NCBI GenBank assembly: GCA_049320885.1 | Contig: JBMORA010000001.1 | Span: 402,622-466,621, forward strand | DNA from: Thermodesulfobacteriota bacterium | GTDB taxonomy: Bacteria > Desulfobacterota > Desulfobacteria > Desulfobacterales > SURF-7 | Reading direction: 5' to 3' | DNA: 64,000 nt | Shown: positions 37,184-61,532 of the stretch, piece by piece | Numbering within the stretch: position 1 is the first letter of the stretch | Layout: each line of letters opens with the position of its first letter | Notes under the pieces: generated by a model | Told to the model about the DNA's origin: nothing | Seen by the model: the letters and a program-made list of their open reading frames with translations, nothing else | Database searches by the model: none | Made by a program: the position numbers and the translations under genes

Positions 37184-37651
37184 TTAAAAGGGCGACCCGG
37201 ACTTGGGCGGCGCCAAATCCGCCACCCACCTCCCGTCTTCCTGAAGCCAATTTTCCTGAAGGATTGCCCCGGGTATCAGAAAACCCATCTGCTTGATATC
37301 GAACCGGACGCTCACCTTGGCCCTGGTTTTATCCTCTGAGAACGTAATCCCGGCGATTTCGAATTTCTCAATCCGTGAGCGGCATTTGGACCGGTTGTCC
37401 TCCAGGGTAACCTGCCGGCGGTAGAGAGCTGAAGCGTTTTCGTAAATGACGTCGCAATCCCCGTCCACTTTGGCCTGCCAGACCACCGCCACCCGTTCCC
37501 GCAAATCCTGTTCGGACACTTTCGGAAACAGATGCGCGCAACCGAGAAAAGCGAAAACCAGCGCCCACGCCGCGATGGCCATCCCCATCGCAGCAAATCG
37601 GGCGCCGATGCCACCAAGCCCGTGATCGGATCTCTTTTTTTCCATCGCCAC
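37184..37651 (-). CDS. Putative lipoprotein (NTF2-like small domain)
   Basis: Hydrophobic signal ending in lipobox FLGC; LRERV..W.AK and W...DG.W pattern. Confidence 0.7.
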   Translation of the reverse strand: MAMEKKRSDHGLGGIGARFAAMGMAIAAWALVFAFLGCAHLFPKVSEQDLRERVAVVWQAKVDGDCDVIYENASALYRRQVTLEDNRSKCRSRIEKFEIAGITFSEDKTRAKVSVRFDIKQMGFLIPGAILQENWLQEDGRWVADLAPPKSGSPF

Positions 37652-37662
37652 TTCCTTCGTCT

Positions 37663-38625
37663 TTACCGGTTCCCCGATGTCCTTCTTTTGGCCAGGTTGC
37701 GTTGTGTCTCGAATTCTTTTTCCAGGGCATCAAATTCCGGATCCGATGCCACGGACGGTGTCAATTCCTTTAAAAAGCTTTCCTGCCGCTCGATTTTCCC
37801 GTTCCGGTCCAGCCATATCCGGATGACCCCCACATGTTTCCCGCCCATGCTGGATTTCAGCAGAATCTTGCCATGGACCACCGCCGGCTCGAAATCATAA
37901 TAATACTGGTGTCCCACGATGATCACATCGATGCCGTCCACCTCATTCGCCAGTCGCACGCTTTCGTCCCAGCCGGCATGGGACAGCAGGACAACGAGGC
38001 CGGTTTCCTTTTTCAGGGCCGGCAGGACGGCCTTCAGGGATGAAACCATATCCCGCACTTCGATTCCATCCGCACCTGTCCGGGCCGGGTCCGTGAAACC
38101 GGCGGAAACGACCCCCACCACGCCGATCTTGACGCCGTTGACGGTTTTCGTATGGTAGGGTTTCCAGGCGTATTCCTTGCCCACAAAGGTATTCGAGCCG
38201 ATGAAACCCGGCTGAATCGAGTCCCGGAAACGCTGCAAGAAAGGCAGGCCATACCCCAGCTCACCGTCCGCGACATTCATGGCGTCATATCCCAACATCT
38301 TCAGGGCTCTTGCGGTAAACTCGGCCCTCAGTTCCGCCGGTTCTTCCTGGCTCCAGAAAAAATCCCCGGCATCCACCAGCAGGATGTCGCCGTATTCCTT
38401 CCGCAGCTCCGCAACATAGCCGGCCCGCCGGGCCAGCCCGCCAGGGGCGTTCGTTGCTCAGCCAAAGCATTTGATATGCCCCTGGCCGTCGCTGGTGTAG
38501 GCGATCACCACATCCGGCGGGGCGGCCTGTTTGCTTTCCGCGCCCTGGCCCGGGCCCACGGATCCGAGGCCCACCGCCAGAACCAGAACAACGCTCCATA
38601 ACCGACAGGAAAAGAAACACCTCAT
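37663..38625 (-). CDS. UshA-like (5'-nucleotidase N-domain) secreted selenoprotein, Sec56 in a CxxU motif
   Basis: ORFs 38458-38652 and 37663-38376 are in frame across a single TGA (38460-38458): YTSDGQGHIKCFG-U-ATNAPGGLARRA...LLVDAGD. GAGGAGAGG RBS; signal peptide; SECIS-like hairpin downstream. Confidence 0.88.
38411..38457 (-). promoter_or_regulatory. Candidate bacterial SECIS element
   Basis: Directly 3' of the UGA: outer GCAAC/GUUGC stem and inner GCUGGCCC-[GGC]-GGGCCGGC stem; the apical loop starts with G, 28 nt after the UGA. Confidence 0.72.
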
Positions 38626-38718: not shown

Positions 38719-41184
38719 TTACCGGTACAGTTCCGCTCCGCTGAGCAACCCGAGGCTCCCGTCACCATAGAGGAAAAGTCCCATGATGCCGTTGCCGTCG
38801 GCGGTGATCCGCACCCAGGGCAGCTCCGGCAAGCGGGTTTCCGGGAAAACCTCGCCGAGGTTGAAAACGGCCTTGGTAAAAGGCGCAACGGTCAAAACCA
38901 CCTCCTCCCCCGGCACCATTTCACCGTTCCGGCCCATGGGAGTCAGGGTCACCGCAACACCCATCGGCCCCGGGTTGTACAGCGCGACTCCGGTCCACCA
39001 ATCGCCGTCCCGGGCGATGTGGGGAATGGCCAGTTGATTCACGCCCTGATCCAGGGCCATGAGTTCAAAAGCCGCGCTGCTGACGGCGGTCTTATAGGTG
39101 AAATAACCGGCGACGGGGGTCTGGGCGGTGATCTGCAGGGCTCCCTGGGCCAGCTCCTCCTCCGTCATCGCCGGAAACAGGTCGACGATGGACCGGGTTG
39201 TTTTTTCATAGGGCATCAACTCCAGCGGAACCGGTTCGCCGCCCTGGCCATTCACCATCCGGCATTCAACGGCATTGACGGCGCCGCCCGGATTGATCAA
39301 GGTCATTTCCGTACGCCAGACGCCGGAAACCGCCACATGGGGAATGATCATCCGGGTATCGGTCCGGGTCAGGGCAAACAGGCTGTCCGGACCGCCGGAA
39401 TCGTTTTTGAGCCAGCGGGAAAAGCCGTCCACGCCGGCAGCGGTGTCCGGGACAGAGGTCTGCACGTCGATCCAGCCGTTTTCAATGGCTTTGTAAAACG
39501 GATTGGCGCTGGGCGAGTACCGCAGGACGGAACCGGCCGGAAGATGGATGCCCGCCTGGCGCTCCGGTATTCCCTGGGCGCTGTACAGCAGGCAATTCAA
39601 CTCCACGGCCTGGGCGAAGCGGTTGACCAGCCCCCAGGTGACGACCTTGCTGGTGGAAAAAAGTCCGGAAGTATCGGGTATCATCCATCGTCCGGCGCCG
39701 GATCCGCCGGGCTGGCCGAAACCGGCCAGGCTTTGCCGGCCGATGCCGTCCAGGGAAATCATCGCCGCCGGGTCGTCGCATAACAGTTTCAGGGCCTTGA
39801 TCGAGGCTTTTTCGTGCAGACGCATGGGCAGGCTTTCCGCCAGCCAGACATCCTTTTGCCGGGGGCCGATTTCGTAAGGCCCCTTGAGGGTGGCCACAGG
39901 CCGGGAGGCGCTGTCATAGGCGACGATCTGGACATCGGTGAGCGGGAGATCGAAGGTATTGGTGATGGCGACCCCGTTCCAGGCCGATCCCTTTTGAAGA
40001 TCGGGAATCCATTGTTCGTTGGCCTTGGACTGGTCGAAAACGATGCGGTAAATTCCCCCTCCGCCGTAGTTGTCGCGGCGGACGTTCAAGCGATAGGGTG
40101 GATTTTCCGCTGCAAGGGTCAGGGTGGCCGTATCATTGAGTTCCGCCTGCCATACCATCCGGCCGGCCGCATCCAGGAGGTCAATCCGGATGCCGTCCTC
40201 CAGGGTATCGATCTTCTCGAACCCAAACGCCAGCCGGTCGCCGGAACCGGCGTTGATGGTATAGGCATCCTCGTTCAGCAATATCAGGTTGTAATTGCCC
40301 GGCGTCAACTGCACGGCTCCCGTGTTTTCCAGAAAATCATCCTTGTGCAGGGAAATGGACCGGATCAGCTCATAGTTGAGAAAGGGATTGGTGGCCTGGG
40401 GCGCCAGCGGATAAAATACCGAGCGGGGCGGGCTCCCGGCGCTGGTGCCGGTCCATTCGCCGCCGGTGATTTCATTCCGGGCGTTGAGATAGAGAAGATA
40501 GGTGTAAATCTTTGTCTTGACCACCGTACCCTGGATATCCGGATGCACGTTGTCGTCGGCGTACCAGATCTGGCAACGCACCTCCTTGCCGGCACTGGTG
40601 TTGGTGAGCTGCATGTCATACTGGAAAATGGGGTAAAACCAGGCTTCCGTGGCCGAACCGAGATTGGCCACAAAGGCCCGGCGGTGAACCTTGATATAGT
40701 TCAACAGCCAGGCGTGAAAAATCTCCGGGTTGTACCGCACCGATTCGCTGATGGTCAGGTCGCTGCCATGGCAGGCGGAGAGCAGGCCTTTTTTGTCCCC
40801 CACCCGGAAAATGATATTATTGTAGGAAGAGGGGTAAAAAACGATGTTTTCATAGGCTGCGGCCGCGGCCCAGGCATGGCATTGGCCGTTCCAGCTTTCC
40901 GCGTCCGGGTCGTAATGGTTGGCCAGTTCCCACTGGGTGGTGGCGCCCGGATAGGTTCCGGTGGTCAGCAGCTCGAACTTCTCGGTGGGCGCCGGATGGC
41001 CGAAATTGGCATAGCCGTTGGCCAGGGCGCCGCTTCTGGTGGACCACCAATAGCCGGACCAGGGCCGAAAATAGGTTTCCGCCGCATCCGTGCCGGCCAG
41101 GGCCTGGAACGGCGGAGCCAACAAAACCGCCCACAACACGGAGGTCATGACAAGGGCGGCTGCATGGAAGGTCTTGGTTTTCAT
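38719..41184 (-). CDS. Secreted protein: N-terminal GP42/elicitor-type transglutaminase-like domain plus four C-terminal beta-rich repeats
   Basis: Signal peptide; PWSGYWW, SWNGQCHAWAAAA, FRVGDKKGLL, NPEIFH, AWFYPIFQY, YTYLL..N...EITGGEW. Confidence 0.78.
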   Translation of the reverse strand: MKTKTFHAAALVMTSVLWAVLLAPPFQALAGTDAAETYFRPWSGYWWSTRSGALANGYANFGHPAPTEKFELLTTGTYPGATTQWELANHYDPDAESWNGQCHAWAAAAAYENIVFYPSSYNNIIFRVGDKKGLLSACHGSDLTISESVRYNPEIFHAWLLNYIKVHRRAFVANLGSATEAWFYPIFQYDMQLTNTSAGKEVRCQIWYADDNVHPDIQGTVVKTKIYTYLLYLNARNEITGGEWTGTSAGSPPRSVFYPLAPQATNPFLNYELIRSISLHKDDFLENTGAVQLTPGNYNLILLNEDAYTINAGSGDRLAFGFEKIDTLEDGIRIDLLDAAGRMVWQAELNDTATLTLAAENPPYRLNVRRDNYGGGGIYRIVFDQSKANEQWIPDLQKGSAWNGVAITNTFDLPLTDVQIVAYDSASRPVATLKGPYEIGPRQKDVWLAESLPMRLHEKASIKALKLLCDDPAAMISLDGIGRQSLAGFGQPGGSGAGRWMIPDTSGLFSTSKVVTWGLVNRFAQAVELNCLLYSAQGIPERQAGIHLPAGSVLRYSPSANPFYKAIENGWIDVQTSVPDTAAGVDGFSRWLKNDSGGPDSLFALTRTDTRMIIPHVAVSGVWRTEMTLINPGGAVNAVECRMVNGQGGEPVPLELMPYEKTTRSIVDLFPAMTEEELAQGALQITAQTPVAGYFTYKTAVSSAAFELMALDQGVNQLAIPHIARDGDWWTGVALYNPGPMGVAVTLTPMGRNGEMVPGEEVVLTVAPFTKAVFNLGEVFPETRLPELPWVRITADGNGIMGLFLYGDGSLGLLSGAELYR

Positions 41185-41207
41185 GGGTAAGAAAATCGTT
41201 TCGGAGA

Positions 41208-41855
41208 TCAATGGGTTTCCCGCCAGGATCGACGATCGCCGGTGTCTTCGTAGAGCCACCACCGGTCGCCCTCGGCCCATAGCTGACGGACGCGGATGGA
41301 TTTTCCATAATGAACGGAAACCAGTTTCAGGACACGGCCCGTGTGGACATGGGCCTGGTCCGGCGGAATCATTTCCCGGGCCACGGCTTCCGCCAGGGTG
41401 ATGGGGCGGGTCTCTTTGTCGAGGTGATAGGCAAACCCGGTGTCGCCGACCAGTTTGCGACTGACGGCTTGGGTCTGGCCGCTGTCTCCGGGGTTCAGAT
41501 CGTCCAGGGGAAACGGATAGCCCCAGGAAAGGGTGATGGTTTCTTCCGCCCGGGTGTCATGGGTGTAGATGCCGGACAGCCGGTCTTCGATTCTCATCAG
41601 GCGGCCGGTAGCCGCATATTGGAGCATCAGGTCGGGCTGGGCCTGATCGTTGCGGAAAACGGCGTAGGAACCGGATTCCCGGGGAACAAGGCGCCATTTG
41701 ATTTCATTGTCCCAGGCCTGGGTAACGGGATTGAGGTAGCGGCTGCGGATGACGATCCCGGCCGGCTCCGCCGGAGCCGTGGCCGCGAACAGTGCAGCGA
41801 GTGCCGATGTCACGGCGAAAACGATGCTAATGATCTTAAATGGTTTCATTTTCAC
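41208..41855 (-). CDS. Secreted hypothetical protein
   Basis: 215-aa ORF with a signal peptide, colinear within the operon. Confidence 0.7.
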   Translation of the reverse strand: MKMKPFKIISIVFAVTSALAALFAATAPAEPAGIVIRSRYLNPVTQAWDNEIKWRLVPRESGSYAVFRNDQAQPDLMLQYAATGRLMRIEDRLSGIYTHDTRAEETITLSWGYPFPLDDLNPGDSGQTQAVSRKLVGDTGFAYHLDKETRPITLAEAVAREMIPPDQAHVHTGRVLKLVSVHYGKSIRVRQLWAEGDRWWLYEDTGDRRSWRETH

Positions 41856-41879
41856 AATTCAAAACCTGCCGCCCAAAAT

Positions 41880-41916
41880 AAGATGAAGAAGGAATCAGGG
41901 ATTCCTTCTTCATCTT
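41880..41916 (-). terminator. Perfect 17-bp hairpin downstream of the S-layer-like gene
   Basis: AAGATGAAGAAGGAATC-agg-GATTCCTTCTTCATCTT, followed by ATTTT on the - strand. Confidence 0.75.
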
Positions 41917-41973
41917 TACAGCTGCTGTTTCAAGCGCCCGCGTTCAAGCCGGACGTTTCAAACAGGTTGGTGG

Positions 41974-43812
41974 TTAGTTGTTCCACTGGCTGGCGTTGGT
42001 GTAGGCCGTGTAACCGGTGCTGTCGGACCCGTTGCCGGTCATGCCGAAACCGCCGGCGCTGGCGAACTGGGTCACCACCACGATGTGGCAGGACGAGTCG
42101 CCCAAGGTGCCGGTGCCGGCAGTCTGGGTCAGGTTGGCCAGCAGCGTGGAAGCGCCGTATACCGCCAGTCCGCCCGCCGCGATGGAAGGCGTGGTGTAGG
42201 TGCCGACGTCGCCGTCAGACTCGTATACCGTCACCGCGGCGGTGCCGGCGGCTGAAGACGGGTTGCCGATGGTCATGCCATACCACCATCCTTGGGAACC
42301 ATCCAGCGCAACCGCATAGGGATAGTACAGGGTGGTGGTGGGTACGGAAGCCGCACAGGTATCGACGAATTCGGCGATGATGCGGTCGTCGGTGAAAATC
42401 AGGCCGCAGGGCAGTCTGTACAGTTCCACGGTGACGGTGACCTGGTCGCCGTTGTCGAACTGGGCCGGGTCATAGACGACCAGCGGGACATCCACGCGGA
42501 TCACGTTATCGGTGTCGATGCCGGTGAAGGCAGCAGCGGTGGTGAATTCCACCACGCGTTCGCCTGCGGGAATGGCCTGGCAGTCAGCACCGCTGGCATA
42601 GCCGGTAACCGCAACGCCGGTTTCCGTGGCCGGGGTGCCCAGGGCCACAACCGCCGTGCCGGGATCCGAGCAGGGATCTTCGCTCGGCAGGAAGGAAGCA
42701 GCGGTCGGAGCAGCGGCAAAATAAGCGCCGTCGCCGGAGATCGTCAACGTCAAACGGTATTCGTCGTTCGGGTTGAAGAAGGTGCCGCTCTGGTTTTCGA
42801 TCAGCAGGGTGTTGCCGCCGAAGGTGGTGGAGGTGCAGTAGGAAGCTGCCGTCTCATAGTTGAAGGTACAGGAAGAGCTCTGGCCGCCGGCCGGTTCCAC
42901 ATAACCGTACAGATCACCCTTGCAGGCGTCCAGAACGATGGTGGTGGCCGCGATCAGATGGGCAACCTGGGGGTTGGAGGGGTTGAAGGTCAGGAAGTTG
43001 TTGCCATCCACACCGCCGGAGTTGATGCTCACGTTGATGGTGGTGCCGCTGTACTGGGCGCTGTTCACCGTCACGCAGATGTTGTTGTCCCAGTCGGCGT
43101 TGTACTGCAGCACGTCCGCGGCAGCGCCGGGACCGGCAATGCCGTCGCCGTAGATGCCGTCGCCGTCATAGTCCTTGACCGCCAGCTGGGCGCCGTTGGT
43201 GGGCACGGTGACGCCGTCATGGGGGTTGTTGTCGAACAGTTTGATCTGGAACTCGGTGCCGGGCTCGACGGTGAGGGAAGAAGAACCGTCATAGTTGGCG
43301 GCATTGTTGATGCCCAGGGCGTTGTCTTCGTCGTAGACATCGATGCGGATCCGGCTGGAGCCGCTGGTGCCGCGCACGCGGAAAACGATTTCCTGACCGG
43401 CTACGGTGATGCCGGCGTTGGTGCCGTCACCCACGGTGCCGACATCCTTGATGGCCCACAGGTAATTGTCAACCACCGCGCCGGTGTCGCCGATATCGGT
43501 GGTGGCGAAGCCGGAGTTGCCGGCGGGCAGGGGCACGGTGTCGGCGCCCAAGGCCGCGCCCAGGACCAGGAAGTCAAAAGACTGGCAGAGGGTGACGCCC
43601 AGGGGCATGTCCATGGTGACCCAGTCGCCGTCACGCAGCACGGTGCCGCCGTCGAAAATCAGGGTGACGTTACCGGTTTTTTCACAGGCATTCGCCGCAG
43701 CGGTGATGCCTTCCGAGTTGGTTTTCACTTCGACCTGTTGCGCGGCCATCGCGGACATGGTGATTCCCATGACCAGCATCAACGCCGCCATGACTACAGT
43801 AAATTTTCTCAT
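41974..43812 (-). CDS. Probable S-layer / major surface protein
   Basis: GGAGGA RBS; Sec signal peptide; very acidic, T/G/A/V/D-rich, few K/R; strongly C-ending codons; DYDGDG Ca-binding-like loop; no C-terminal TM anchor; followed by strong hairpins. Confidence 0.65.
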   Translation of the reverse strand: MRKFTVVMAALMLVMGITMSAMAAQQVEVKTNSEGITAAANACEKTGNVTLIFDGGTVLRDGDWVTMDMPLGVTLCQSFDFLVLGAALGADTVPLPAGNSGFATTDIGDTGAVVDNYLWAIKDVGTVGDGTNAGITVAGQEIVFRVRGTSGSSRIRIDVYDEDNALGINNAANYDGSSSLTVEPGTEFQIKLFDNNPHDGVTVPTNGAQLAVKDYDGDGIYGDGIAGPGAAADVLQYNADWDNNICVTVNSAQYSGTTINVSINSGGVDGNNFLTFNPSNPQVAHLIAATTIVLDACKGDLYGYVEPAGGQSSSCTFNYETAASYCTSTTFGGNTLLIENQSGTFFNPNDEYRLTLTISGDGAYFAAAPTAASFLPSEDPCSDPGTAVVALGTPATETGVAVTGYASGADCQAIPAGERVVEFTTAAAFTGIDTDNVIRVDVPLVVYDPAQFDNGDQVTVTVELYRLPCGLIFTDDRIIAEFVDTCAASVPTTTLYYPYAVALDGSQGWWYGMTIGNPSSAAGTAAVTVYESDGDVGTYTTPSIAAGGLAVYGASTLLANLTQTAGTGTLGDSSCHIVVVTQFASAGGFGMTGNGSDSTGYTAYTNASQWNN

Positions 43813-44095: not shown

Positions 44096-45547
44096 TCAGT
44101 TGTCCGTGGAAACCGGTAAACCGATTTTCCAGGCGTTCCAAACGCTGCCTGCTCCCCCATCCGTCCAATTCTCGTTGTTCAGCACCCCCGGCCAGATCAC
44201 CAGCCGCGTGCCTCCCGGATCCAGCGGCAGTTCCAGCCCGCCGACCGCATCCGTGGCCAGCTCCAGCTTGACATTGGGATAATCGACAAACAGCGGCAAT
44301 CCCGGGATTCCTTCGCCCGGATCGAACAGGTTGTTGCCGTTTCCATCCGCGTAGGCCACGCCCATGACCCGTGATGTCCCGGCCGCCGCCGGCGTCGCGA
44401 AGACAACCGTCACCAGATACAGATGGCGGAATTCCTCCCCCTCCCGCGGTGCCACCGGGCGCAAGCCGATGCCCATTTCCGTCAGGGCCGGATGGAACAA
44501 CTGCCGGGCCTCGCTCCCGCTTTCGCTGAAGGCCCGAAACAGCAATTGCTCGAACACCGCCTCACTCACCTCCGCCAGGGGCGTTTCCGGTTCCAGGGCG
44601 AGGATATCGATGATCTGGGCGAACTCCCGCGGTTCATACCCGGCTGCCTTCAGCCTGTCCGGAGTCGACCGGCCGTCATATCCGTTGGGATCGAAATACC
44701 GGTGAGCCGCCATTTCCTCGGTGTGGGCCTGCGCGGCCCAGCCCAAGGTTTCATCGGCGGACAATGCCTGCATGCCGCTGGTCAGCGCGGCGCGCCATTC
44801 GGGTCGGGTTGTCAGAATGGTTTCCGGATTCAAGCCCATCGCGGCAGCCACCTCTACCGGTTTGGTTCTTGCCTGGTTGATCAGATGCGCCAGAATTGTC
44901 TCCGCTTCCTGCAGGGAGCCGACCTGCGATGCACCTGAAACGCCAAAATCGCATACGGCAAGATACACATTGTAGGCAGTTTTCCCAATCGTCAATGATC
45001 CGGTCTGGACGCCGATACCGATATGGGTAAAATGGGGGTTGAGCAACTTACGCTCCACGTCGGCGCCGGTTTGCAGCTCATCTAAAAACATGTTTTTAAA
45101 CAAAATGTCAACTGCTTTTTGCGGTTCGATGAAATTTTTGAAGGCCACCAGCCCCAGGCTTTCACCGGTCATAAGCGGCATAAACCCCTGAAACCGTATT
45201 CGATCCTCATGGGTTAAGCCGTCCGGGGAAACGGTGCTGTAATAATTCCGGGCCAGCATATCCCCGGTATGTTCGCGGGCCGCCGCCGAAAGCGATTCCT
45301 GCGCCTGCAGGGGCATGAGCCCGCTGTTCAGGATATCACCGAATTCCGGCAGGGCTGCGAGCAGCGCCTTCGGGTCTTTCCCCAGGGAGGCCGCCGTCGC
45401 CAACGGATTGGAGCGGGCCGCATTGATCCGGTTCATCAGCATGGCTTCCATATTCCTGGACTGATCATATGGTTCATCCGCCCGGGCCACGCCCGCCACC
45501 GGCAAGGCAAACAGAAAAAGCAATATGAAGCGGAGGCAATATGTCAT
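44096..45547 (-). CDS. Secreted protein with two CAP (SCP) domains and a C-terminal SdrD-B-like module
   Basis: Two INxAR...L..AA..H..M....YF...DG...DR...G...GIG units; VMGVAYADGNGNNLFDPGEGIPG. Confidence 0.82.
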   Translation of the reverse strand: MTYCLRFILLFLFALPVAGVARADEPYDQSRNMEAMLMNRINAARSNPLATAASLGKDPKALLAALPEFGDILNSGLMPLQAQESLSAAAREHTGDMLARNYYSTVSPDGLTHEDRIRFQGFMPLMTGESLGLVAFKNFIEPQKAVDILFKNMFLDELQTGADVERKLLNPHFTHIGIGVQTGSLTIGKTAYNVYLAVCDFGVSGASQVGSLQEAETILAHLINQARTKPVEVAAAMGLNPETILTTRPEWRAALTSGMQALSADETLGWAAQAHTEEMAAHRYFDPNGYDGRSTPDRLKAAGYEPREFAQIIDILALEPETPLAEVSEAVFEQLLFRAFSESGSEARQLFHPALTEMGIGLRPVAPREGEEFRHLYLVTVVFATPAAAGTSRVMGVAYADGNGNNLFDPGEGIPGLPLFVDYPNVKLELATDAVGGLELPLDPGGTRLVIWPGVLNNENWTDGGAGSVWNAWKIGLPVSTDN

Positions 45548-45899: not shown

Positions 45900-48005
45900 T
45901 TACCACTTGTATCGCAACATCACCTGGACGGTCCGGGGCGGCCCCTCGATGACCCGATACTGTCCCGGCTGGGTGTATTCCCGGTCCAACAGATTCCGAA
46001 CCGACAGGGTCAACTCCATGCTCGGAATCACGAAACGGTGGACCGTGGCATTCCAGTCCAACAGCCAGGCCTCCTTGCAGGTGATGACCGCTTCCTCCCG
46101 GGGATGGATCAGGTCCCGGGCAGAGATATACCGCAATATGCCCGTGGTGCTGAACCGCTGGACGGGTCGCCAGGTACCGATCAGATTGAACAATCGGTCA
46201 GGCCCCAGATCGTAGGGATAAACCAGTTCGACATAGTGTTTTTCGACGCTGCCGTCCGGCCGGATGAAATCATAATCGTTGTACAGGTATTTCTCATCCG
46301 GCCCGCTGTTGCTCAGCACCGTGAAATTGAGTTCCACATCCAGGGTGTCATGGGGATGCAGGCGGGTTTCGAATTCAAGCCCGTTGATTGTCTGCGTGTT
46401 GGGACTGCTCAAGCCCGCGTAGGGATCCTCCATCACATGATTGGCGATACGGTTGTTGAAGCCGCAGAGCGACATATCCAAAACCATGGAGGGCTTCCAG
46501 GCGACCTGGGCGCTGAGATTGGTGATTTTCTCCGGCTCGAGTTCGTCTTCTTCCCGCAGCTGGCTCGCATAGGGCGTGCGGAAAGCCGTTCCGTGAAACA
46601 GCTTGACCACCCACTGCCGGTTCGGCGACCAGACCAGCCCCGTATTGTAGCTGACGGCGTCATCGTATTCATCGTGGGCATCGTTCCGAAGCCCGAGCAG
46701 TATATCCACCGGCCCCATTTTGTGGACGTACTGACCGAAAACAGACACCAGGCGTGTATGATAATCCACCTGATCGAGTTCGGGCAGCAGGTTTTCGTTT
46801 TCCGGCCCCAAATAGTCCGGCAGATAGCCGTCCCAGATGAGAGCGTCATCGACCCGCCGGTCCCGGTAGGAAGCCCCGGCGGTCAGCAACCCCCGTCCCG
46901 CCATCAGGGTGTGATCGAAAATCAGTTCCGTGTAGAAACTGTTTTCATTCTGCTCGATGGTGCGATCGATGATATCGTATTCCGGATTCAGCATACTGTA
47001 GCTGGCGGTGAAACGAAGCGCGGAACGAAAGTCGAGACGCTGTTTGCTTTCCAGTTTCAGAAAACCGGAAGGTACTCTTTCCGTTTCGCGCCAGGTATAG
47101 TCCCCTCCCTGTTCCGCCAGGGCATAGGGATGCCGGTAATCGGATATCCGGCCGGAAAGGGAAAAGCGTTCGCCGTGGGAAACCCGGCCGGCAGCCTCCA
47201 CATACTGGGAATCTCCGACGCTTGCCGTACCGTATCGGTTCTCGGGAGGAACCGCCTCTTCCAGATCGCCCCAGAATCGGACGACATTGACATCGCCGTC
47301 CTCCTCCTGCTGCTGATGGTGGGCGCTGACCGAAAAAAATGCATCCCAGTTTCCCGAAAGGAATCCGGCGTTGGCATAGGCGCCCACCGGATGACCGGGC
47401 TCCCCGAAATAGCCGCCCACCTCGCCGCCCTGCACATCCCGGCCGGTGAGGGGGACAATATTGACCACCCCGGCAAAAGCGTCCGGACCCCACAGGACCG
47501 AACCCGGTCCGCTGACGATTTCGATCCGCTTCACCGATTCGAGCGACATCTCCCTGTCCAGAAATTGCAGCGATTTGGATACCTCCGAACCCATCGGCAC
47601 CGTATCGTATAAACAAAGGATGGAATTGGAGACGCCGCGCATATAGGCTTGCGTGCCGCTTTCGCGGCCGGCCATGTGGAATCCAGGCACCAGCGCCAAG
47701 GCTTCACCGAGGGTGGAAACTCCGCGTTCACGGATCTGTTCCCTTGTGACCACGTGGGCCACAGCCGGCACCTGCCAGGCGCTTTCCTCCCGGCGCGTGG
47801 CAATGGACAAAACGTCCAGCGACTCTCCAACAAACATGAGCAACGTATCGCTTTCGGCCGCTCCATCCGGCTTCACTTCGCCTTCAGCCCCGGCTCCCGC
47901 TCCCGGCCGGATCAATACGACCATCAGACAGCAGCACAGGAAAAGATTGCCCACCCGATGAAACAGCCTTGCGATTCCGCGCAGGATAAAATCGTTTTTT
48001 TTCAT
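45900..48005 (-). CDS. TonB-dependent outer membrane receptor
   Basis: Plug motif RIEIVSGPGSVLWGPDAFAGVVNI; TAFRTP, LEPEK, VRNLLD; C-terminal YKW. Confidence 0.92.
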   Translation of the reverse strand: MKKNDFILRGIARLFHRVGNLFLCCCLMVVLIRPGAGAGAEGEVKPDGAAESDTLLMFVGESLDVLSIATRREESAWQVPAVAHVVTREQIRERGVSTLGEALALVPGFHMAGRESGTQAYMRGVSNSILCLYDTVPMGSEVSKSLQFLDREMSLESVKRIEIVSGPGSVLWGPDAFAGVVNIVPLTGRDVQGGEVGGYFGEPGHPVGAYANAGFLSGNWDAFFSVSAHHQQQEEDGDVNVVRFWGDLEEAVPPENRYGTASVGDSQYVEAAGRVSHGERFSLSGRISDYRHPYALAEQGGDYTWRETERVPSGFLKLESKQRLDFRSALRFTASYSMLNPEYDIIDRTIEQNENSFYTELIFDHTLMAGRGLLTAGASYRDRRVDDALIWDGYLPDYLGPENENLLPELDQVDYHTRLVSVFGQYVHKMGPVDILLGLRNDAHDEYDDAVSYNTGLVWSPNRQWVVKLFHGTAFRTPYASQLREEDELEPEKITNLSAQVAWKPSMVLDMSLCGFNNRIANHVMEDPYAGLSSPNTQTINGLEFETRLHPHDTLDVELNFTVLSNSGPDEKYLYNDYDFIRPDGSVEKHYVELVYPYDLGPDRLFNLIGTWRPVQRFSTTGILRYISARDLIHPREEAVITCKEAWLLDWNATVHRFVIPSMELTLSVRNLLDREYTQPGQYRVIEGPPRTVQVMLRYKW

Positions 48006-48072
48006 AACCGATTTGATTCCCATCCAAAACGACCCGCATCCGTCATTCGCGATTGCCGATCCGTCATATCCC

Positions 48073-49416
48073 TCATCCAAGATTTTTCAGGAACACCCGG
48101 AGCTTTGCCCGGGTCAGCCCCAGCAATTTGGCCGCCTGGGTCTGGTTGTTGCCGGTCATCCGCAGGGCCTGATGGACCATTTCCTTGTTGAAATCCTCCA
48201 GACAAATCCCCCCCGGTGGCAGCTGGAAGTTCCGGGAACCCGGGTCGGAAGCACCAGCATTGTTCAAAAAAGAAAGCGTTTCGGCCGTAATGGCTTCCCG
48301 GTCCGATCCGATGATCATGGCCCGCTCCATGGCATTGGCGAGTTCCCGGACATTACCCGGCCACCGGTAGGCCGTCAGCATGCGCCCCGCGCCGTCGGTC
48401 AATTCCATGGCCCGGCCTTCTCCGAGGAGATTGAGAAAATGCTGGCACAGGGGCAGAATATCCTCCGTCCGTTCCCGCAGGGGAGGCAGTTCAATGGGCA
48501 CCACATTGATGCGGTAAAACAAGTCCTGCCGAAAACGGCCGTTCCGGACCGATTCCATCAGGTTTTGATTGGTGGCGCATATGAAACGTGCATCCACGGG
48601 TATTTCCTCGTTTCCTCCCACGCGCCGGACGGTTTTTTCCTGGAGGGTCCGCAGCAGCTTGGCCTGGGCTTCCAGCGGCAGGTCGCCGATCTCGTCCATC
48701 AACAGAGTGCCCTGGGAGGCGAATTCAAATTTCCCCTTGGTTCTTCGTTCCGCCCCCGTGAAAGCGCCTTTTTCATATCCGAACAATTCCGATTCCACCA
48801 AGGAAGCCGGGATGGCCGCGCAGTTGATGGGCACGAAACGACCGTTTCTCCGTCCGCTCTGGCTGTGTATGTATCGGGCCAACAATTCCTTGCCGGTCCC
48901 GGACTCGCCTTGAATCATCACCACCGAGTCGCTGCGGGCCACCTTGGCCGCCAGTTCCATCACGGACTGCATCGCCTTGGAGCGATAGACGATGTCGCCG
49001 GCGCCGGCCACCAGGGAAAGCTCCCGCTTCAGTTCCTTGTTTTCCTGTATCACTCTGGAAAAGTTCAAGGTTCTTTCAATAGTGAGCTGGATGCGGTCCT
49101 CCTCGAACGGTTTGGTGATATAATCGGAGGCCCCCATGCGCATGGATTCCACCGCCGAGTCCACGGTGGCGAACGCAGTGATGAAAACGAAGGGACACGG
49201 CAGGTCTTCCGCCTTGACCTTCTGCAGCAGTTCGACGCCGCTCATGCGGGGCATCTTGATATCGCTGATCACCATGTCATAAGGTGTTTCCTTGATCTTC
49301 GCATATGCCTCCAACCCGTCCGAGGCCTGTTCCGTTGTATGACCGTTTCGCTGCAGCAACAGGGCCAGGAGATGACGCATTTTTTCTTCATCATCGACGA
49401 TCAGTATGTGAGCCAT
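48073..49416 (-). CDS. sigma54-dependent response regulator (NtrC family)
   Basis: REC domain; GESGTGKE, ESELFGYEKGAFTGA, WPGNVREL; Fis-type HTH NQTQAAKLLG. Confidence 0.96.
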   Translation of the reverse strand: MAHILIVDDEEKMRHLLALLLQRNGHTTEQASDGLEAYAKIKETPYDMVISDIKMPRMSGVELLQKVKAEDLPCPFVFITAFATVDSAVESMRMGASDYITKPFEEDRIQLTIERTLNFSRVIQENKELKRELSLVAGAGDIVYRSKAMQSVMELAAKVARSDSVVMIQGESGTGKELLARYIHSQSGRRNGRFVPINCAAIPASLVESELFGYEKGAFTGAERRTKGKFEFASQGTLLMDEIGDLPLEAQAKLLRTLQEKTVRRVGGNEEIPVDARFICATNQNLMESVRNGRFRQDLFYRINVVPIELPPLRERTEDILPLCQHFLNLLGEGRAMELTDGAGRMLTAYRWPGNVRELANAMERAMIIGSDREAITAETLSFLNNAGASDPGSRNFQLPPGGICLEDFNKEMVHQALRMTGNNQTQAAKLLGLTRAKLRVFLKNLG

Positions 49417-49512
49417 TGTCTTCACTCCTTCCAATCGGATATCTTTCCCCCCGCCTTCCCCCCTCTGCGTCGACCGTGGGCCGCAACCGGCTTCTTGCCG
49501 CATGGTGCATGA

Positions 49513-50934
49513 CTATCTTCCCTGCTGCAGGGGAATGTCCACCGTGAAAAGCGCCCCACCCGAATCGGCATCCTCCACCAGGATGAACCCTCCATGGGAT
49601 TTGAAAACCTGGGAGGCGAACGCCAGCCCCAGGCCCGTGCCTTTGGCTCGTGTTGTGAAGAACGGTTCAAAGATTTTTCCCTTGTCATCCGGACGAATGC
49701 CACCGCCGTTGTCCTCGATCTGCACCCGCCAGCGGTCGAAATCGACTTCCGCCTTGATCCGCACATATCCGTTCTCCCCCGCCGCCTGGCAGGCATTTTC
49801 GATGATGTTGCCGAAAGCCCGGACCATCAAATCACGGTCCGCATGACGGATCGCCGGCCGTTCCGGCAGATCGAGATTCAACTGCAGGGCGGACTGATGG
49901 TGCAGCATTTCAAAACGCCGGAATACATCATCCAGCATCTGATTGAGATCAACGGTCCGGAAAACCGGTTTCGTCGGTCTGGCGAACTGCAGAAAGGCCT
50001 CGATCATGCTGTTAAGGCGGCGGATTTCATCCTCGATATAACCCACCAGGGTCTGCTCGCTGCTCAGGTTGTAATCGCGCTTGATCATATCCAGGGAAGT
50101 TTTGATAATGGCCAGCGGATTTTTCACCTCATGGGCGATCATCAGGGAAAATTTTCCCATTTCCGCCAGGGATTTCTGCTTCATCATTTCCCGGTTCACC
50201 CGGGCAAGATCCTCCTGGCTTTCCTTCAAGGAATCCAGCATGGCGTTAAACGATTTCGCCAGCGCCCTGGTTTCCGGCAATTTACCGGGCCGGGCTCTCA
50301 ATTCGAAGTCCCCCCGGCCGATGTGCATGGCGGTGGCGGTCAGTTGTTTCAATTCGGAACCGATGGGCCGGGACACGAAATAAAACACCAGGCCGGCAAT
50401 CAGTGCCAGACCCAGGGACATCCAGATGAATCTGCGCGCGATATCGGCCATCAGCAGATCGATTCCATGGGTGCTGAAGTGGATGCGCACCTTGCCGATA
50501 TGGTCCACGATCGCGGTCCGCACGGGTTCGAAAGGGGTACGCGCCACGACTTTCCCGCCGGAAAATACGATATTCTCGTCGCTCGCCCGCTTGAAAACCA
50601 CCGGCGTCTCCACCAGCGACAGGGGGCCTTCGGCGGATCGGGACAAATCCACCAGCGTATTGTTGTGATTATCCAGAATCAGCACCCGCGCCACATCCTT
50701 TTCCCCCAGCAGGTTATGAGCCAGATTTTTCAGTCCCTCCTTGTCATTGATCAGGACCCCCACTTCCGAATTCAGGGCCAGGTACCGGGCCAGAAACGCT
50801 ATCCGGTCCTCGAAGCGCTCATGCATGAAACGGCTGGTGATCCGCACCCCCACGATGCCGAAAATGGCCGTGGAAGCGCCGATCAGCACAAAAGCCGCCA
50901 GCAGAAAGCGCGTATGGATACCGGGACTTTTCAC
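49513..50934 (-). CDS. HAMP-domain sensor histidine kinase
   Basis: Two TM helices, HAMP, AHEVKNPL, NIIENA, DNGGGI, FEPFFTTRAKGTGLGL. Confidence 0.95.
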   Translation of the reverse strand: MKSPGIHTRFLLAAFVLIGASTAIFGIVGVRITSRFMHERFEDRIAFLARYLALNSEVGVLINDKEGLKNLAHNLLGEKDVARVLILDNHNNTLVDLSRSAEGPLSLVETPVVFKRASDENIVFSGGKVVARTPFEPVRTAIVDHIGKVRIHFSTHGIDLLMADIARRFIWMSLGLALIAGLVFYFVSRPIGSELKQLTATAMHIGRGDFELRARPGKLPETRALAKSFNAMLDSLKESQEDLARVNREMMKQKSLAEMGKFSLMIAHEVKNPLAIIKTSLDMIKRDYNLSSEQTLVGYIEDEIRRLNSMIEAFLQFARPTKPVFRTVDLNQMLDDVFRRFEMLHHQSALQLNLDLPERPAIRHADRDLMVRAFGNIIENACQAAGENGYVRIKAEVDFDRWRVQIEDNGGGIRPDDKGKIFEPFFTTRAKGTGLGLAFASQVFKSHGGFILVEDADSGGALFTVDIPLQQGR

Positions 50935-51926
50935 GGCTTCTCCTCTTCCTTCTCGCCGCCGGCCTGCCCTTCAAAGGGAATGTGCAACGCCTCCAGCACC
51001 TGATGGTTCAGCAACACCTTGAAGGCGGGAACGGCCAGATGGCAAGGGCGCCCTTCCAGCCGGTCCAGCCCCATGGCTGCCGCCTGTTTCCCGATGGCCT
51101 GGTAATCGCACACCAGGCCCAGCGCCGCGCCGCTGTCGGTAAAAAACCGATTGTATCCCAGCACCGCCACGTTGCTGGCAATGGCTTCCTTGATCAGGAA
51201 CAGGATAATGCTCTCGGAAATCACCGTGTGGTCCGGAATCACCCACAAGGCGTTGATGTCCTTGCGGTGTTTTTTAAAAACCGCCAGGATGTCGCTGCGG
51301 GATTTCACCGTGAGGGGGACGATGTCGATACCGTGATCCCGGGCCGCCGCCGCCGCGCCGGCCGCGAAATCACTGTTGTTGGCGGGGTCATAGATCAGGC
51401 CGATCCGCCTGGTCTTGGGCAATTTCCGGCCGATCTCCCTGACCTGGATTTGGGCCGGGATGTCCAACGGGATTCCGCACCACCCCTTGGCTTCCGGCAC
51501 GATCTTTTCCGGATGCAGCACCATGGCGAAAACCTTGGGAACCGTTTCATCCGGAAAGGTTTTCCAGATCAACTCCATGGCCTCCGGACCGACGGCGATC
51601 AGCAGATGGAAACGCTCCTTTTTCAGCCGGCGGATCAAAACCGTGTGATCCGGGTCCGTCTCCGGTTCCAGAAACGACACGTCCAACGACATATGGTCTT
51701 TCTGTTCGAAAGAAGATTGGATTCCCTGGAGTGCATCCAGATACGGCCTGATTTTCTGGGAAACCACCACCGCCGCGCTGGAAGGCGGCGGATTTTCCGC
51801 AGGCAAGACCCGGCCGGCCGCCATTAGCGTCACCATCAGACTCGCCATCAGGACCGGCAACAGACCGACGCCCGTCCTTCGCGGTGCTGCAAAAACCGCT
51901 TTCTCCTTTTGGCCGCCTGGTCTCAT
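50931..51926 (-). CDS. Periplasmic ABC-type substrate-binding protein (no transporter adjacent)
   Basis: LIAVGPEA, RIGLIYDP, ALWVIPD, GA...DYQAIGKQAA; overlaps the histidine kinase start by 4 nt. Confidence 0.85.
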   Translation of the reverse strand: MRPGGQKEKAVFAAPRRTGVGLLPVLMASLMVTLMAAGRVLPAENPPPSSAAVVVSQKIRPYLDALQGIQSSFEQKDHMSLDVSFLEPETDPDHTVLIRRLKKERFHLLIAVGPEAMELIWKTFPDETVPKVFAMVLHPEKIVPEAKGWCGIPLDIPAQIQVREIGRKLPKTRRIGLIYDPANNSDFAAGAAAAARDHGIDIVPLTVKSRSDILAVFKKHRKDINALWVIPDHTVISESIILFLIKEAIASNVAVLGYNRFFTDSGAALGLVCDYQAIGKQAAAMGLDRLEGRPCHLAVPAFKVLLNHQVLEALHIPFEGQAGGEKEEEKP

Positions 51927-51937
51927 CGATTGCTGGA

Positions 51938-54292
51938 TTATCGTCCGGTTTCGATCCTGTTTCTGAAATCCCTGGTTACATCATCCACCGCGCTCAAATC
52001 GGCGATGACCCGCGGAGTGATCAGCACGATCATTTCGTTGCGACTGGTTTTATTCGTGTTTTTCCCGAACAGATAGCCGAGCACGGGGATGTCTTTCAAA
52101 TACGGCACCCCGGAATCCCCTTCCGATGTGTCATTTTTGATCAGGCCGCCGATGACGATGGTCTGGTTATGCCCCACGGTCAGATTCGTGGAAACGCTGC
52201 GCTGGAAAAAGGAAGGGTATGCGACGCCGCCCACCAGTACATCGCCGGCCACGTCGCTGACCTCCTGGTTGACGGTCAGGCTCACCAGACCGTTGTCGTT
52301 GATATGGGGCGTGACCGACAGGATGATGCCGGTGTTGCGATACTGGATATTGGTCTGGACCATGGACTCATTGCTCAGGTTGGTGGTGTTGTACACGGCG
52401 CTGGCCACCGGAACTTCCGTGGAGATATTGATTTTCGCCTCCTTGTCGTTGGAAGCCAGGACGGTGGGCGAGGAGAGCACATTGACCCTGTTTTCCTTGG
52501 CAAGGGCCGACAGGGTCGCCGACCAGCGCGCGGTCTGCCCCATCACGTAGGTGAGGCCGTCCACTCCCATGCTGGCGCTCAAGACTTCGGTGCTCGGACC
52601 GCCTTTGCCGCTGACATACCGCCACTCGACACCAAATTCCTCCGAATCGGACAGCGTGATATCGGCGATCATGACTTCGATCAACACCTGGCGCGGCAGG
52701 ACATCCAGGGATTCCAGCATGCGTTGAATAATCTGATAATCCGAAGGGATCGCTTCGATAATCAAAGCGTTGCGGGAGAGATCCGGTGTTATTTTGATCG
52801 GTGCCCGGAGGGTGCCGGAGCCGATTTCGCCGAATTCCCGCGGGGTCTGGGGTTTGGAGCCGCCGGCCGCCGGCTTGGCGATGGCAAAGGGATTGGGGGA
52901 GGTTTTGACGGTTTCCGCTTCCTGAGCGCCGCCGGCTTTCTTGGCGCCGGCCTTTTCCTGCCCGGTTTTGGTCTCGGAAGCGGTCTTGAATATTCCGTCC
53001 AGCAGGCCGGCCAATTCCCCGGCCTGGCCGTTCTTGACCTTGTAGACATACAATTGGGGGGCGACGGTCTCATTGGGGCCGTCCAGGGTCTTGAGGAGCT
53101 GGGCCACCTTTTCGATGACCCGGGGCTGCCGGCTCATCACCAGCAGCATGCCCAGCCGGTCGATGGGAATCAACCGGACATCCGTCTCGGAAGCACTGTA
53201 ATAGACCGGCAGGGCGTCCTGCAGCACCTTGATGATGTCCTCCATCGTGTTGTATTCGATCCGGAAAAACCGGTGGCCGACCCCGGCGAACATGTCCAGA
53301 TCGAAACTTTCCACCAGCTTCAAGGCCTTGGCGACATTGACCCCCTTGTCCACCAGCAGGATGGAATTGGAATTATCCGGGGCCACCATGGTTCCCTCGG
53401 AGGAGATGAACGGCGTCAGGATTTTCATCATTTCCGCGGAATGGATATTCTTCAGGGGAATGATCTGCATGAGCACCCGCTCCCCGGGAGGCAACGCCTG
53501 GCTTTCCGCCTCCTGCCGGGTCAGCATCGGCATCCGGGCCGCTTCCTTGAGGCTCGTGATGTTATATACCGCCCCTTCCTTGACGGCCGTCAATCCGTTG
53601 GTCTCGAGGATTTGAAAAAAAACCGGGAACAAATCCCGGGGGCTGATGGTGCCGGCGGTATGCAGGGTCACCCGCCCGCGCACAGCGGGGTCCACGATAT
53701 ACGAGATTTTCAGGATATCCGCCATGGTCCGGATGACTTCATACAGATCGGCGTCATCAAAATTGAGCGTCACTTTTTCCTTTTCGGATTTCGCGGCCTC
53801 GGGGGCGGCTTCCTTGCCCCTTGCCTCCGGGGATGTCATACCGGCCCCCGGCTGTTCCTGTTTCGTAGCCGGTGCTGTCCGCCGGATGTCCGCGGGCTCT
53901 TCGCTCTCTATTGCCGGTGCTTCGGGGGCCGGCTCCGCTTTCACCGGAGCGGGCGCCGGACGCCGGTCCGCACTTGTTTCCTTCCGGGCGGCAGCCGGTT
54001 TTGGGGTGGCGGCGGGCTCCTTTTCCGATTTTCCGGAAGGCGGGCCGGCTTCCGCGGGCTGCTTCATCATGCCGAAGGGCGTGCTGACGATCCGGTATGT
54101 TTTTCCGTTTTCCGTCACCAGTTTGGGAAAATCCTTCTGCAGCATCTCTCCGCCGGCCGGCCCGGAGGCGACCCCGGCGCTGCCGGATTCCGCCCGGCCA
54201 TCCCCCGGACCCAGAAAGCACATACACACAAAGGCCGCAATACCCGGCACCATCCTACAGCATCTGCCGATTGATCTTGTAATTCGCATCAT
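51938..54292 (-). CDS. gspD: Type II secretion secretin
   Basis: TLNFDDADL (N0 domain), LDVLPRQVLIEV, NVLSSP, TGIILSVTPHIN, VPYLKDIPVLGYLF. Confidence 0.95.
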   Translation of the reverse strand: MMRITRSIGRCCRMVPGIAAFVCMCFLGPGDGRAESGSAGVASGPAGGEMLQKDFPKLVTENGKTYRIVSTPFGMMKQPAEAGPPSGKSEKEPAATPKPAAARKETSADRRPAPAPVKAEPAPEAPAIESEEPADIRRTAPATKQEQPGAGMTSPEARGKEAAPEAAKSEKEKVTLNFDDADLYEVIRTMADILKISYIVDPAVRGRVTLHTAGTISPRDLFPVFFQILETNGLTAVKEGAVYNITSLKEAARMPMLTRQEAESQALPPGERVLMQIIPLKNIHSAEMMKILTPFISSEGTMVAPDNSNSILLVDKGVNVAKALKLVESFDLDMFAGVGHRFFRIEYNTMEDIIKVLQDALPVYYSASETDVRLIPIDRLGMLLVMSRQPRVIEKVAQLLKTLDGPNETVAPQLYVYKVKNGQAGELAGLLDGIFKTASETKTGQEKAGAKKAGGAQEAETVKTSPNPFAIAKPAAGGSKPQTPREFGEIGSGTLRAPIKITPDLSRNALIIEAIPSDYQIIQRMLESLDVLPRQVLIEVMIADITLSDSEEFGVEWRYVSGKGGPSTEVLSASMGVDGLTYVMGQTARWSATLSALAKENRVNVLSSPTVLASNDKEAKINISTEVPVASAVYNTTNLSNESMVQTNIQYRNTGIILSVTPHINDNGLVSLTVNQEVSDVAGDVLVGGVAYPSFFQRSVSTNLTVGHNQTIVIGGLIKNDTSEGDSGVPYLKDIPVLGYLFGKNTNKTSRNEMIVLITPRVIADLSAVDDVTRDFRNRIETGR

Positions 54293-54295
54293 AAG

Positions 54296-55018: not shown

Positions 55019-55039
55019 GCGCGATTTTTCATGCCCCGG

Positions 55040-55630: not shown

Positions 55631-55657
55631 GGCCGCCACTATCTCCGAATTCAATTT

Positions 55658-57058: not shown

Positions 57059-57100
57059 GGGAATTCTGCTTCCCGGTCCGTATTTCCTGGTTCACGCTCC

Positions 57101-58153: not shown

Positions 58154-58172
58154 GATGTTTCGCCGATGGTTC

Positions 58173-59796: not shown

Positions 59797-59797
59797 G

Positions 59798-60226: not shown

Positions 60227-60237
60227 TCTCGCTTCCC

Positions 60238-61467: not shown

Positions 61468-61497
61468 AATGCTGTTTACAATCGACTCCCATCCACC

Positions 61498-61532
61498 ATT
61501 CGTAATTCCCAATTCGTAATTCGTAATTGCGT
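61498..61532. repeat. Tandem heptamer array (ATTCGTA consensus, 5 units)
   Basis: ATTCGTA ATTCCCA ATTCGTA ATTCGTA ATTGCGT. Confidence 0.85.

Follow-up and report, generated by a model that had tools for sequence, protein, structure and literature searches.

The window analysed here is a stretch of 64,000 nucleotides from a Thermodesulfobacteriota bacterium (Desulfobacterales; GenBank assembly GCA_049320885.1, contig JBMORA010000001.1, positions 402,622 to 466,621 of the forward strand). It contains the genes of two secreted proteins, a likely surface-layer (S-layer) protein (P0002, in the following the S protein) and a cysteine enzyme with the fold of the GP42 transglutaminase (P0001, in the following the enzyme), which end in one and in four copies, respectively, of the same module. 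The parts of the two proteins are listed below with their positions in the window; lengths and residues are in amino acids (aa), and the percentages given for the units T1 to T4 are those of the profile-profile comparison with the S domain.

41974..43812, minus strand: P0002, likely S-layer protein of 612 aa with an isoelectric point of 4.05, 11 Cys and strong codon bias
42949..43743, minus strand: domain 1 of P0002 (aa 24-288), immunoglobulin (Ig)-like with insertions, absent from short homologues
42352..42948, minus strand: domain 2 of P0002 (aa 289-487), pilin/adhesin-like Ig fold with Lys298 and the Gln311 loop (Cys297-Cys315)
41977..42351, minus strand: domain 3 of P0002 (aa 488-612, the S domain), one ASRAH-like unit for which a cyclic tetramer is predicted
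38719..41184, minus strand: P0001, secreted GP42-fold cysteine enzyme of 821 aa (PF16683, E 2.6e-12; model with pLDDT 90, pTM 0.84)
40339..41094, minus strand: catalytic domain of P0001 (aa 31-282), fold of the Phytophthora GP42 transglutaminase (3TW5, Z 24.7)
40879-40881, minus strand: codon of Cys102 of P0001, Cys in 78/78 homologues
40021..40338, minus strand: PPC/GOLD/collagen-binding-like beta-sandwich of P0001 (aa 283-388), outside the repeat family (3JQW, Z 12.6; 7RRM, Z 12.8)
39691..40017, minus strand: unit T1 (aa 390-498, 109 aa, WIPDLQ..AWNGVAITN), 97.8%
39355..39690, minus strand: unit T2 (aa 499-610, 112 aa), the most divergent, 95.3%
39037..39354, minus strand: unit T3 (aa 611-716, 106 aa), 97.0%; 1NC7, Z 13.8
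38722..39036, minus strand: unit T4 (aa 717-821, 105 aa), 98.2%

All five units are homologous. That the enzyme carries four copies of the C-terminal module of the S protein had already been claimed in a first-pass annotation of the sequence; the motifs quoted there are present and the claim stands. With single sequences the signal was weak: of the 10 unit pairs, T3-T4 (z 13.7, 0 of 1000 shuffles) and T4 with the S domain (z 4.3, 3 of 1000) stood out clearly, T1-T4 lay at the border with 43 of 1000, and 7 were not significant. Family profiles were therefore needed. The homologue searches yielded 41 enzyme and 33 S-type proteins, and shallow profiles (41 and 32 sequences) related the S domain to T4 with 82-93%, to T1 with 53-84%, to T2 with 43-44% and to T3 with about 1%. 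Deeper profiles (65 S domains, 67 enzymes) gave the values listed above, 95.3-98.2% over 87-90 columns (E 2e-8 to 3e-14), against at most 1.5% in the controls, which were the PPC-like domain (1.5%), the middle Ig domain of P0002 (0.5%) and four reversed profiles (0.2-1.5%). Another profile comparison between S domain and enzyme unit reached 98.3% (E 1.8e-14, 92 columns). A hidden Markov model (HMM) iterated solely from the upstream S-type domains found units in 60 of the 69 enzyme open reading frames (ORFs) of at least 700 aa at an independent E-value (iE) below 0.01, and in 55 of them at iE<0.001.

The predicted fold of the units is that of ASRAH domains, which are described as tetramers with clefts partly built from subunit interfaces and, in their secreted versions, as dyads or tetrads (PMC2739507, available text). 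A run of about eight strands is common to all five units in the AlphaFold2 models. Searched against 48,161 solved chains, enzyme residues 607-711 matched TM1070 of Thermotoga (1NC7) with Z 13.8 (root-mean-square deviation (rmsd) 2.1, 101 residues aligned) and ASRT (2II7) with Z 11.2. The same two structures came out at ranks 1 and 2 for residues 488-602 of P0002 (1NC7 with Z 9.4, rmsd 3.4, 100 residues aligned; 2II7 with Z 8.6). T1, T2 and T4 were placed in the fold via profile homology together with the strand pattern. ASRT from Anabaena is also the top PDB sequence match of the enzyme-unit HMM (E 0.017), and DUF5719 is touched by 16 of the 41 enzymes at E up to 1 (best 3e-9). The near-invariant Asn at the end of strand 2 of ASRAH domains is kept in 110/113 enzyme units and 59/65 S domains; it is aligned to the Asn of ASRT. 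What speaks against full membership is the first strand, in which the well-conserved ASRAH Trp is mostly Leu: in the register inferred from the alignment range, enzyme units have Leu in 54/113 and Trp in 6/113, and S domains have Leu in 32/65 with Trp outside the five commonest residues. Because this Trp is mostly not kept, the unit is called ASRAH-like here and not a strict member. The equivalent of His25 of TM1070 is Trp in 42/65 S domains, 51/67 T1 and 56/67 T4 units, and not in T2 or T3. For ASRT proper (PF07100) the best match in the genome has E 0.86, and the SHExxCxxN signature is absent; unlike the solo intracellular ASRT family, the carriers of the unit are secreted multi-domain proteins.

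How a single copy in one protein may relate to four copies in another is suggested by complex prediction. Four S domains were predicted to associate with a score of 0.95 in three runs, the best of three controls scoring 0.00; among 30 solved pairs 20 reach the mark used for this score, among 23 single chains 1. The predicted tetramer has a pLDDT of 91-94, the runs share at least 75% of the contacts, and the contacts are head-to-tail, copies 2-4 and 4-3 using the same face pair, which we interpret as a four-fold ring. In this model the last strand of one subunit abuts the first strand of the next at Pro498 (conserved in 62/65), and fusion within one chain would thus be possible with short linkers. 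A caution applies to the score: it was obtained for four copies with a tool calibrated on two, and it may reflect resemblance to the tetramers solved for TM1070 and ASRT (identity 9-15%). The fused form is predicted to be a rigid block. In the Atlas, residues 310-822 of P0006, a homologue of the enzyme, were superposed as a single block on a DUF5719/ASRT protein of 455 aa (TM score 0.83 by target, 429 residues aligned). The same residues also superpose on fusions with amidase, SpoIID or protease in Actinomycetota, Chloroflexota and Acidobacteriota.

P0002 is probably the subunit of an S-layer. Its gene ranks 33rd of 3276 in codon bias (effective number of codons), close to GroEL and flagellin, the enzyme gene ranking 470th. 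In its AlphaFold2 model (pLDDT 85) an all-beta body follows a hydrophobic N-terminal helix (aa 2-23). Its homologues are Cys-rich (median 13) and comprise 58 long forms and 35 short ones (about 400 aa), the latter without domain 1. The family to which P0002 can be compared is Slr4, described from Pseudoalteromonas tunicata (EAR28894, 578 aa) as a Sec-exported protein that forms a p4 S-layer with 9.1 nm spacing and whose gene follows a type II secretion system (T2SS) operon (PMC7821379; also PMC11094555, PMC12153261; available text). P0002 shares with this family a Sec-signal-like start, as judged from the hydrophobic helix, and a beta-rich body near 580 aa. In the Atlas clusters nearest to P0002 (0.96), 15-20% of the members carry Pfam Slr4, and a model of a 152-aa Slr4 domain aligns to residues 408-607 of P0002 (TM score 0.68 by target). 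Among 95 homologues, which are those of the about 110 long single-copy proteins that were aligned (alignment A5), Slr4 (PF19526) is the sole recurring family, matching 5 of them with E 1.5e-4 to 1.6e-3 (18-21.5 bits), always on the C-terminal unit and at HMM positions 265-357 of 370.

Some observations weigh against P0002 being an Slr4-like S-layer protein. The five homologue matches all lie under the cut-off of 25 bits, P0002 itself does not match PF19526, and its domains 1 and 2 match adhesin (antigen I/II) and pilin Ig folds (Z 7.5-8.6) no less than S-layer folds, the matches of domain 2 (Z 7.5-7.7) being in a common range. The searches for other relatives were mostly negative: P0002 belongs to no Pfam or NCBIfam family, the PF19526 search of its own genome gave nothing above cut-off, a homologue search with the 95-sequence alignment retrieved close relatives only, PDB sequence searches with S-protein profiles gave nothing convincing, and whole-chain Foldseek gave, apart from 3TW5 (the GP42 fold of the enzyme), generic Ig matches only. 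A match to 6XI3 (E 1e-4) was set aside as similarity of short Thr-rich Ig repeats. RNA contigs, which in 4/4 runs spanned the greater part of the S gene and only a small part of the enzyme gene, were not used as evidence because the runs had been found via this stretch, the shares were below 0.2 and contigs cannot rank genes. Two loci contain two S-type genes each, in tandem in L045 (5100-8985) and separately in L075 (6179-7597 and 14836-16242); these pairs are possibly alternative layer variants. Alignments to P0002 that extend over about 400 residues, with TM scores of 0.46-0.50, were also obtained for Atlas clusters of Acidobacteriota proteins 610-675 aa in length, which suggests related single-copy surface proteins in that phylum.

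The module is widespread, with matches in 4653 representative proteins at E<0.001. In the best 150 of these 4653, 135 proteins carry a single unit at most 28 aa from the C-terminus; the remainder comprises eight four-copy, five two-copy, one three-copy (starting mid-unit) and one five-copy protein (with one unit split). A census of one genome (G116) covered 25 carrier ORFs in 16 regions. It gave ten four-copy, ten two-copy, five one-copy and no three-copy carriers among the matches listed, and it may miss carriers because 43 of 193 matches are unlisted. The passenger domains on these carriers have no relation to one another (CotH kinase, Lcl, rhodanese, Transglut_core, trypsin, LVIVD, PKD, FecR). 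Proteins with two copies and no passenger also occur, for example the secreted proteins of 243-260 aa at L124:1562-2290 (minus strand) and L125:1797-2576 (plus strand), which could complete rings for two-copy passengers. The genome of the window itself has a second carrier, P0075 (934 aa; contig C31, L001:10115-12919, plus strand), in which two copies of S domain 1 and FN3-like segments are followed by a four-copy block and whose gene has low codon bias and atypical composition; it is a candidate for a protein of lattice seams or edges.

The lattice-assembly or anchoring role that the first-pass annotation had proposed for the module gains support from the predicted cyclic tetramer, the link to Slr4 and the copy numbers of one, two and four. 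On balance we favour, with somewhat better than even confidence, the view that the unit is the four-fold hub and at the same time the glycan-binding surface anchor of an Slr4-like square S-layer, four copies in one chain providing a passenger with a hub of its own. Genome G287 (89% complete) does not sit easily with this view, as it has 19 unit matches, including multi-copy carriers, and no S gene or enzyme was found in it; carriers without a detected S gene are compatible with an anchor, and not with one that strictly depends on the layer. The same genome bears on the proposal that the enzyme is built into the layer which it modifies. In its general form this would mean that the four-copy block either replaces a four-chain hub within the lattice or is held on the lattice through protein contacts; passengers would then become part of the layer and not be tied to a glycan beneath it. 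Some tetrads are built of units near the S domain (P0076-P0078, E 1e-68 to 1e-84), P0075 has a four-copy block as well as two copies of S domain 1, and the enzyme gene always adjoins the S gene region. However, most four-copy passengers have no arm domains with which the lattice could continue, amidases of Chloroflexota and Actinomycetota also carry fused tetrads, and there are the carriers in G287. Incorporation into the lattice is therefore considered unlikely, and the proposal for the enzyme is weakened by the occurrence of its four-copy block on many unrelated passengers.

Hub and anchor functions are to be distinguished also from a simple one. Sugar binding has been predicted for ASRAH domains (PMC2739507, available text), and the module could be a generic sugar-binding domain for substrate or host glycans only, P0002 an adhesin or fibre subunit, and its sharing with the enzyme ordinary domain shuffling. 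The resemblance of domains 1 and 2 to antigen I/II and pilin folds and the missing Slr4 match of P0002 itself would agree with this. On the other side stand 135 of the best 150 representatives (out of 4653), each with one copy at its extreme C-terminus, the codon bias of the S gene in the top 1%, the Slr4-bearing Atlas clusters with the Slr4 HMM matches on the C-terminal unit, and the fact that the passengers have no common substrate. This explanation is given a little less credence even than incorporation into the lattice.

The catalytic domain of the enzyme belongs to Pfam TGase_elicitor (PF16683; 46.9 bits versus a cut-off of 25; 41/41 homologues match), superposes on GP42 (3TW5) with Z 24.7 (rmsd 2.3, 248 residues aligned) and follows an N-terminus resembling a signal peptide. 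In GP42 a Cys-His pair is described as being supported by a strand-2 Asn or by an Asp of a nearby helix (PMC10318531, available text). Cys102 is invariant in 78/78 homologues of P0001, and judged from the sequences the enzyme likely forms a thiol acyl-enzyme; at the position of His139, 55 homologues have His and 20 have Tyr. Two points argue against a GP42-like transglutaminase: His103 of the CH motif is present in P0001 and kept in only 14/78 homologues, and the third residue of GP42 is missing by alignment, the Asn of WNQP aligning to Phe183. The supporting Asp of GP42 would align to Gly140, and the positions of Phe183 and Gly140 vary across the enzyme family. Transglutaminase activity of P0001, which the first-pass annotation had assumed to be directed at the layer, is hypothetical, the fold and the Cys speaking for it and the loss of the CH His in most homologues against it.

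A hint of cross-linking comes from the S family. Gln is present in the variable loop between Cys297 and Cys315 in 81/86 sequences, where 24 would be expected, no other tested residue being as enriched, and Lys298 is present in 63/89 at a median identity of 31%. The test of Gln and Lys was, however, chosen after the alignment had been seen and was made on related sequences, and both residues could instead be lattice contacts. It is conceivable that the enzyme, once anchored, uses Cys102 to join the conserved Gln loop of the S protein to a Lys, and we give this somewhat less than an even chance; to our knowledge, an enzymatically cross-linked bacterial S-layer would be unusual. More doubtful still is that it trims the S protein, by analogy with Cwp84, a cysteine protease that has three anchor repeats in common with SlpA and cleaves it (PMC4089489, PMC4973711, available text).

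The surroundings of the two genes were compared in 80 confirmed enzyme loci out of 171, with flanks of at most 10 kb. Since these loci were selected via the enzyme and are kin, the counts of conserved neighbours are not independent. Where the DNA upstream of the enzyme gene extended for at least 1.5 kb (60 loci), it contained an S-type gene in 59; where it extended for at least 4.5 kb (43 loci), it did so in all 43. In the window the S gene is two genes upstream of the enzyme gene, with the gene of a small secreted protein between them. The other features are:

41208..41849, minus strand: small secreted protein between the S and enzyme genes, 58/60 loci, no Pfam family
41880..41916, minus strand: stem-loop of 17 bp followed by a short T run, directly 3' of the S gene (fold of 41861-41975)
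44096..45547, minus strand: secreted protein, directly upstream of the S gene (37/43 loci), that combines two CAP domains with a C-terminal sandwich
37663..38625, minus strand: UshA-like metallophosphoesterase, 40/55 loci
37184..37651, minus strand: small likely lipoprotein, 52/55 loci in either orientation
45900..51926, minus strand: TonB-dependent receptor, sigma-54 response regulator, histidine kinase and ABC-type binding protein; TonB in 25/36 loci
51938..63049, minus strand: T2SS operon (D, C/N-like, M, L, K, J, I, H, F, E)

The small secreted protein has a conserved C-terminal motif (QLW...WWxYEET..RRSW) and is possibly a chaperone or assembly factor. The stem-loop is likely a terminator or an mRNA-stabilizing element; a simple terminator scan did not list it, and the promoter scan gave consensus matches only. 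The UshA-like gene has an in-frame TGA (C-F-G-U) at 38458-38460 and, with UshA_like_PCGU as its best NCBIfam match (under cut-off), likely encodes a selenoprotein by its sequence. The lipoprotein may, as a guess, be a secretin pilot. A TonB receptor, a sigma-54 two-component pair and an ABC-type binding protein lie between T2SS and S gene in many loci, which suggests that layer synthesis is regulated. Downstream of the S and enzyme genes, at 9645-35104, there is a large surface-glycan cluster (Wzm/Wzt, several glycosyltransferases, methyltransferases, sugar aminotransferases, WbqC, a sulfatase and radical SAM proteins), a candidate for the source of the ligand or for a glycosylation system of the layer; a Wzm homologue is within the flank in 22/80 loci. 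The enzyme loci are from Desulfobacterales, Syntrophales, Desulfobulbia and relatives, including the cultured Desulfonema magnum and Desulfatitalea alkaliphila. The distribution is patchy, with matches in 12/301 genomes of the phylum and 7/61 relatives.

The T2SS operon is on the same strand as the S gene and upstream of it, with five genes between, and the same is true in G301. The T2SS exports folded oligomers, and the folded tetramer could thus be a recognition signal for the adjacent system, one of the functions that the first-pass annotation had considered, without a role after export; Slr4 genes also follow T2SS operons (PMC7821379, available text). A tag would hardly need four copies in fixed geometry, and secreted proteins that carry the four-copy block occur in Actinomycetota and Chloroflexota, groups that for the most part have a single membrane and lack a T2SS. 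Because in these phyla the block is fused to amidases and proteases (PMC2739507, available text), T2SS recognition is unlikely as the main role, and a pure cargo tag is the least probable of the explanations discussed, to be thought of as a long shot. T2SS genes are inside the examined flank in 8/80 loci, which counts against the favoured view; the low number is partly due to the flanks being at most 10 kb.

If the unit is indeed hub and anchor, the system could work as follows. P0002 and the passengers would be exported by the adjacent T2SS. The S domains of four P0002 chains are predicted to join into a beta-sandwich ring of the ASRT/TM1070 fold, which would be both the four-fold hub of the square S-layer and its anchor on the surface, gripping a surface glycan, e.g., the O-antigen of lipopolysaccharide, in the clefts between subunits. 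T1 to T4 of the enzyme would fold into an equivalent ring from one chain and thereby fasten the enzyme to the same surface, where it may act on the S protein via Cys102.

Domains shared between an S-layer protein and anchored passengers are known from Gram-positive bacteria. The unit would, if the proposal is correct, be a candidate surface-anchoring domain of Gram-negative bacteria; there would be a structural reason for the tetrads of ASRAH and DUF5719, and Slr4 would end in a domain of the ASRAH fold; and a likely S-layer family of sediment sulfate reducers and syntrophs would have been named. The single-chain block of four units could also serve as a tag for surface display. Only tentatively, and with considerable doubt, can this be extended to the general statement that an ASRAH-fold tetramer hub gripping glycan is what corresponds to SLH and CWB2 in those Gram-negative bacteria whose square S-layers are Slr4-like, that dozens of passengers carry a single-chain version of this hub, and that in Desulfobacterota a GP42-fold transglutaminase cross-links the lattice via Gln loop and Lys. 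No literature linking ASRAH to S-layers or describing the cassette of S protein and enzyme was found in a search that left most subscription journals outside. SymProFold has modelled the p4 layers of two Vibrio species (PMC11410804, available text), and a tetramer of the C-terminal unit may already be in these models without the name ASRAH.

The systems with which the locus is to be compared are four. With ASRAH proteins (ASRT, PF07100/2II7; TM1070, 1NC7; DUF5719, PF18986, via co-occurrence in the Atlas; PMC2739507) the unit has in common the eight-stranded beta-sandwich, the strand-2 Asn and the occurrence as tetramer, which here is predicted, or as dyads and tetrads within one chain on secreted enzymes; it differs in the Leu for Trp of the first strand and in lacking SHExxCxxN. 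The ASRAH families described are solo intracellular proteins, amidase fusions and actinobacterial lipoproteins; these three, as given in the available text of that paper, do not include a likely S-layer subunit that ends in a single copy and is paired with tetrad passengers in a diderm. With the Phytophthora sojae transglutaminase GP42 (PF16683, 3TW5) the enzyme shares the fold, the nucleophile Cys in W-x-G-x-C and, in P0001, the adjacent His, to which it adds a PPC-like domain and four ASRAH-like units, whereas the Asn is replaced by Phe183 and the His is found in 14/78 homologues.

The Slr4 family resembles P0002 in size (about 580-610 aa), in the beta-rich body with signal peptide and in the T2SS operon upstream. 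The last about 100 positions of its HMM are those matched by the C-terminal unit in 5/95 homologues, and the predicted four-fold ring fits its p4 lattice. Slr4 has been modelled as a beta-helix, and no anchor domain is named in the available text (PMC7821379). P0002 differs in its sub-cut-off score, the phylum, the richness in Cys, the five genes between T2SS and S gene and the dedicated cassette of a GP42-fold enzyme. A parallel in the way of working is with the SLH system and with CWB2, SlpA and Cwp84 of Clostridioides difficile, where likewise a repeat module of fixed repeat number, acting as a glycan-binding anchor, is common to the S-layer protein and many passengers (PMC4973711, PMC4089489, available text), and where in the CWB2 system a papain-superfamily enzyme with anchor acts on the S-layer protein (PMC4089489, available text). 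Pfam scans of both proteins and their homologues gave no CWB2 or SLH family; the analogy is one of mechanism only. The S-layer protein of the CWB2 system contains three repeats within the chain, whereas here there is one per chain and the ring is predicted to be made from four chains. The ASRAH fold, its tetrads and Slr4 are each known; their connection and the cassette in Desulfobacterota did not turn up in the literature searched, which left most subscription journals outside.

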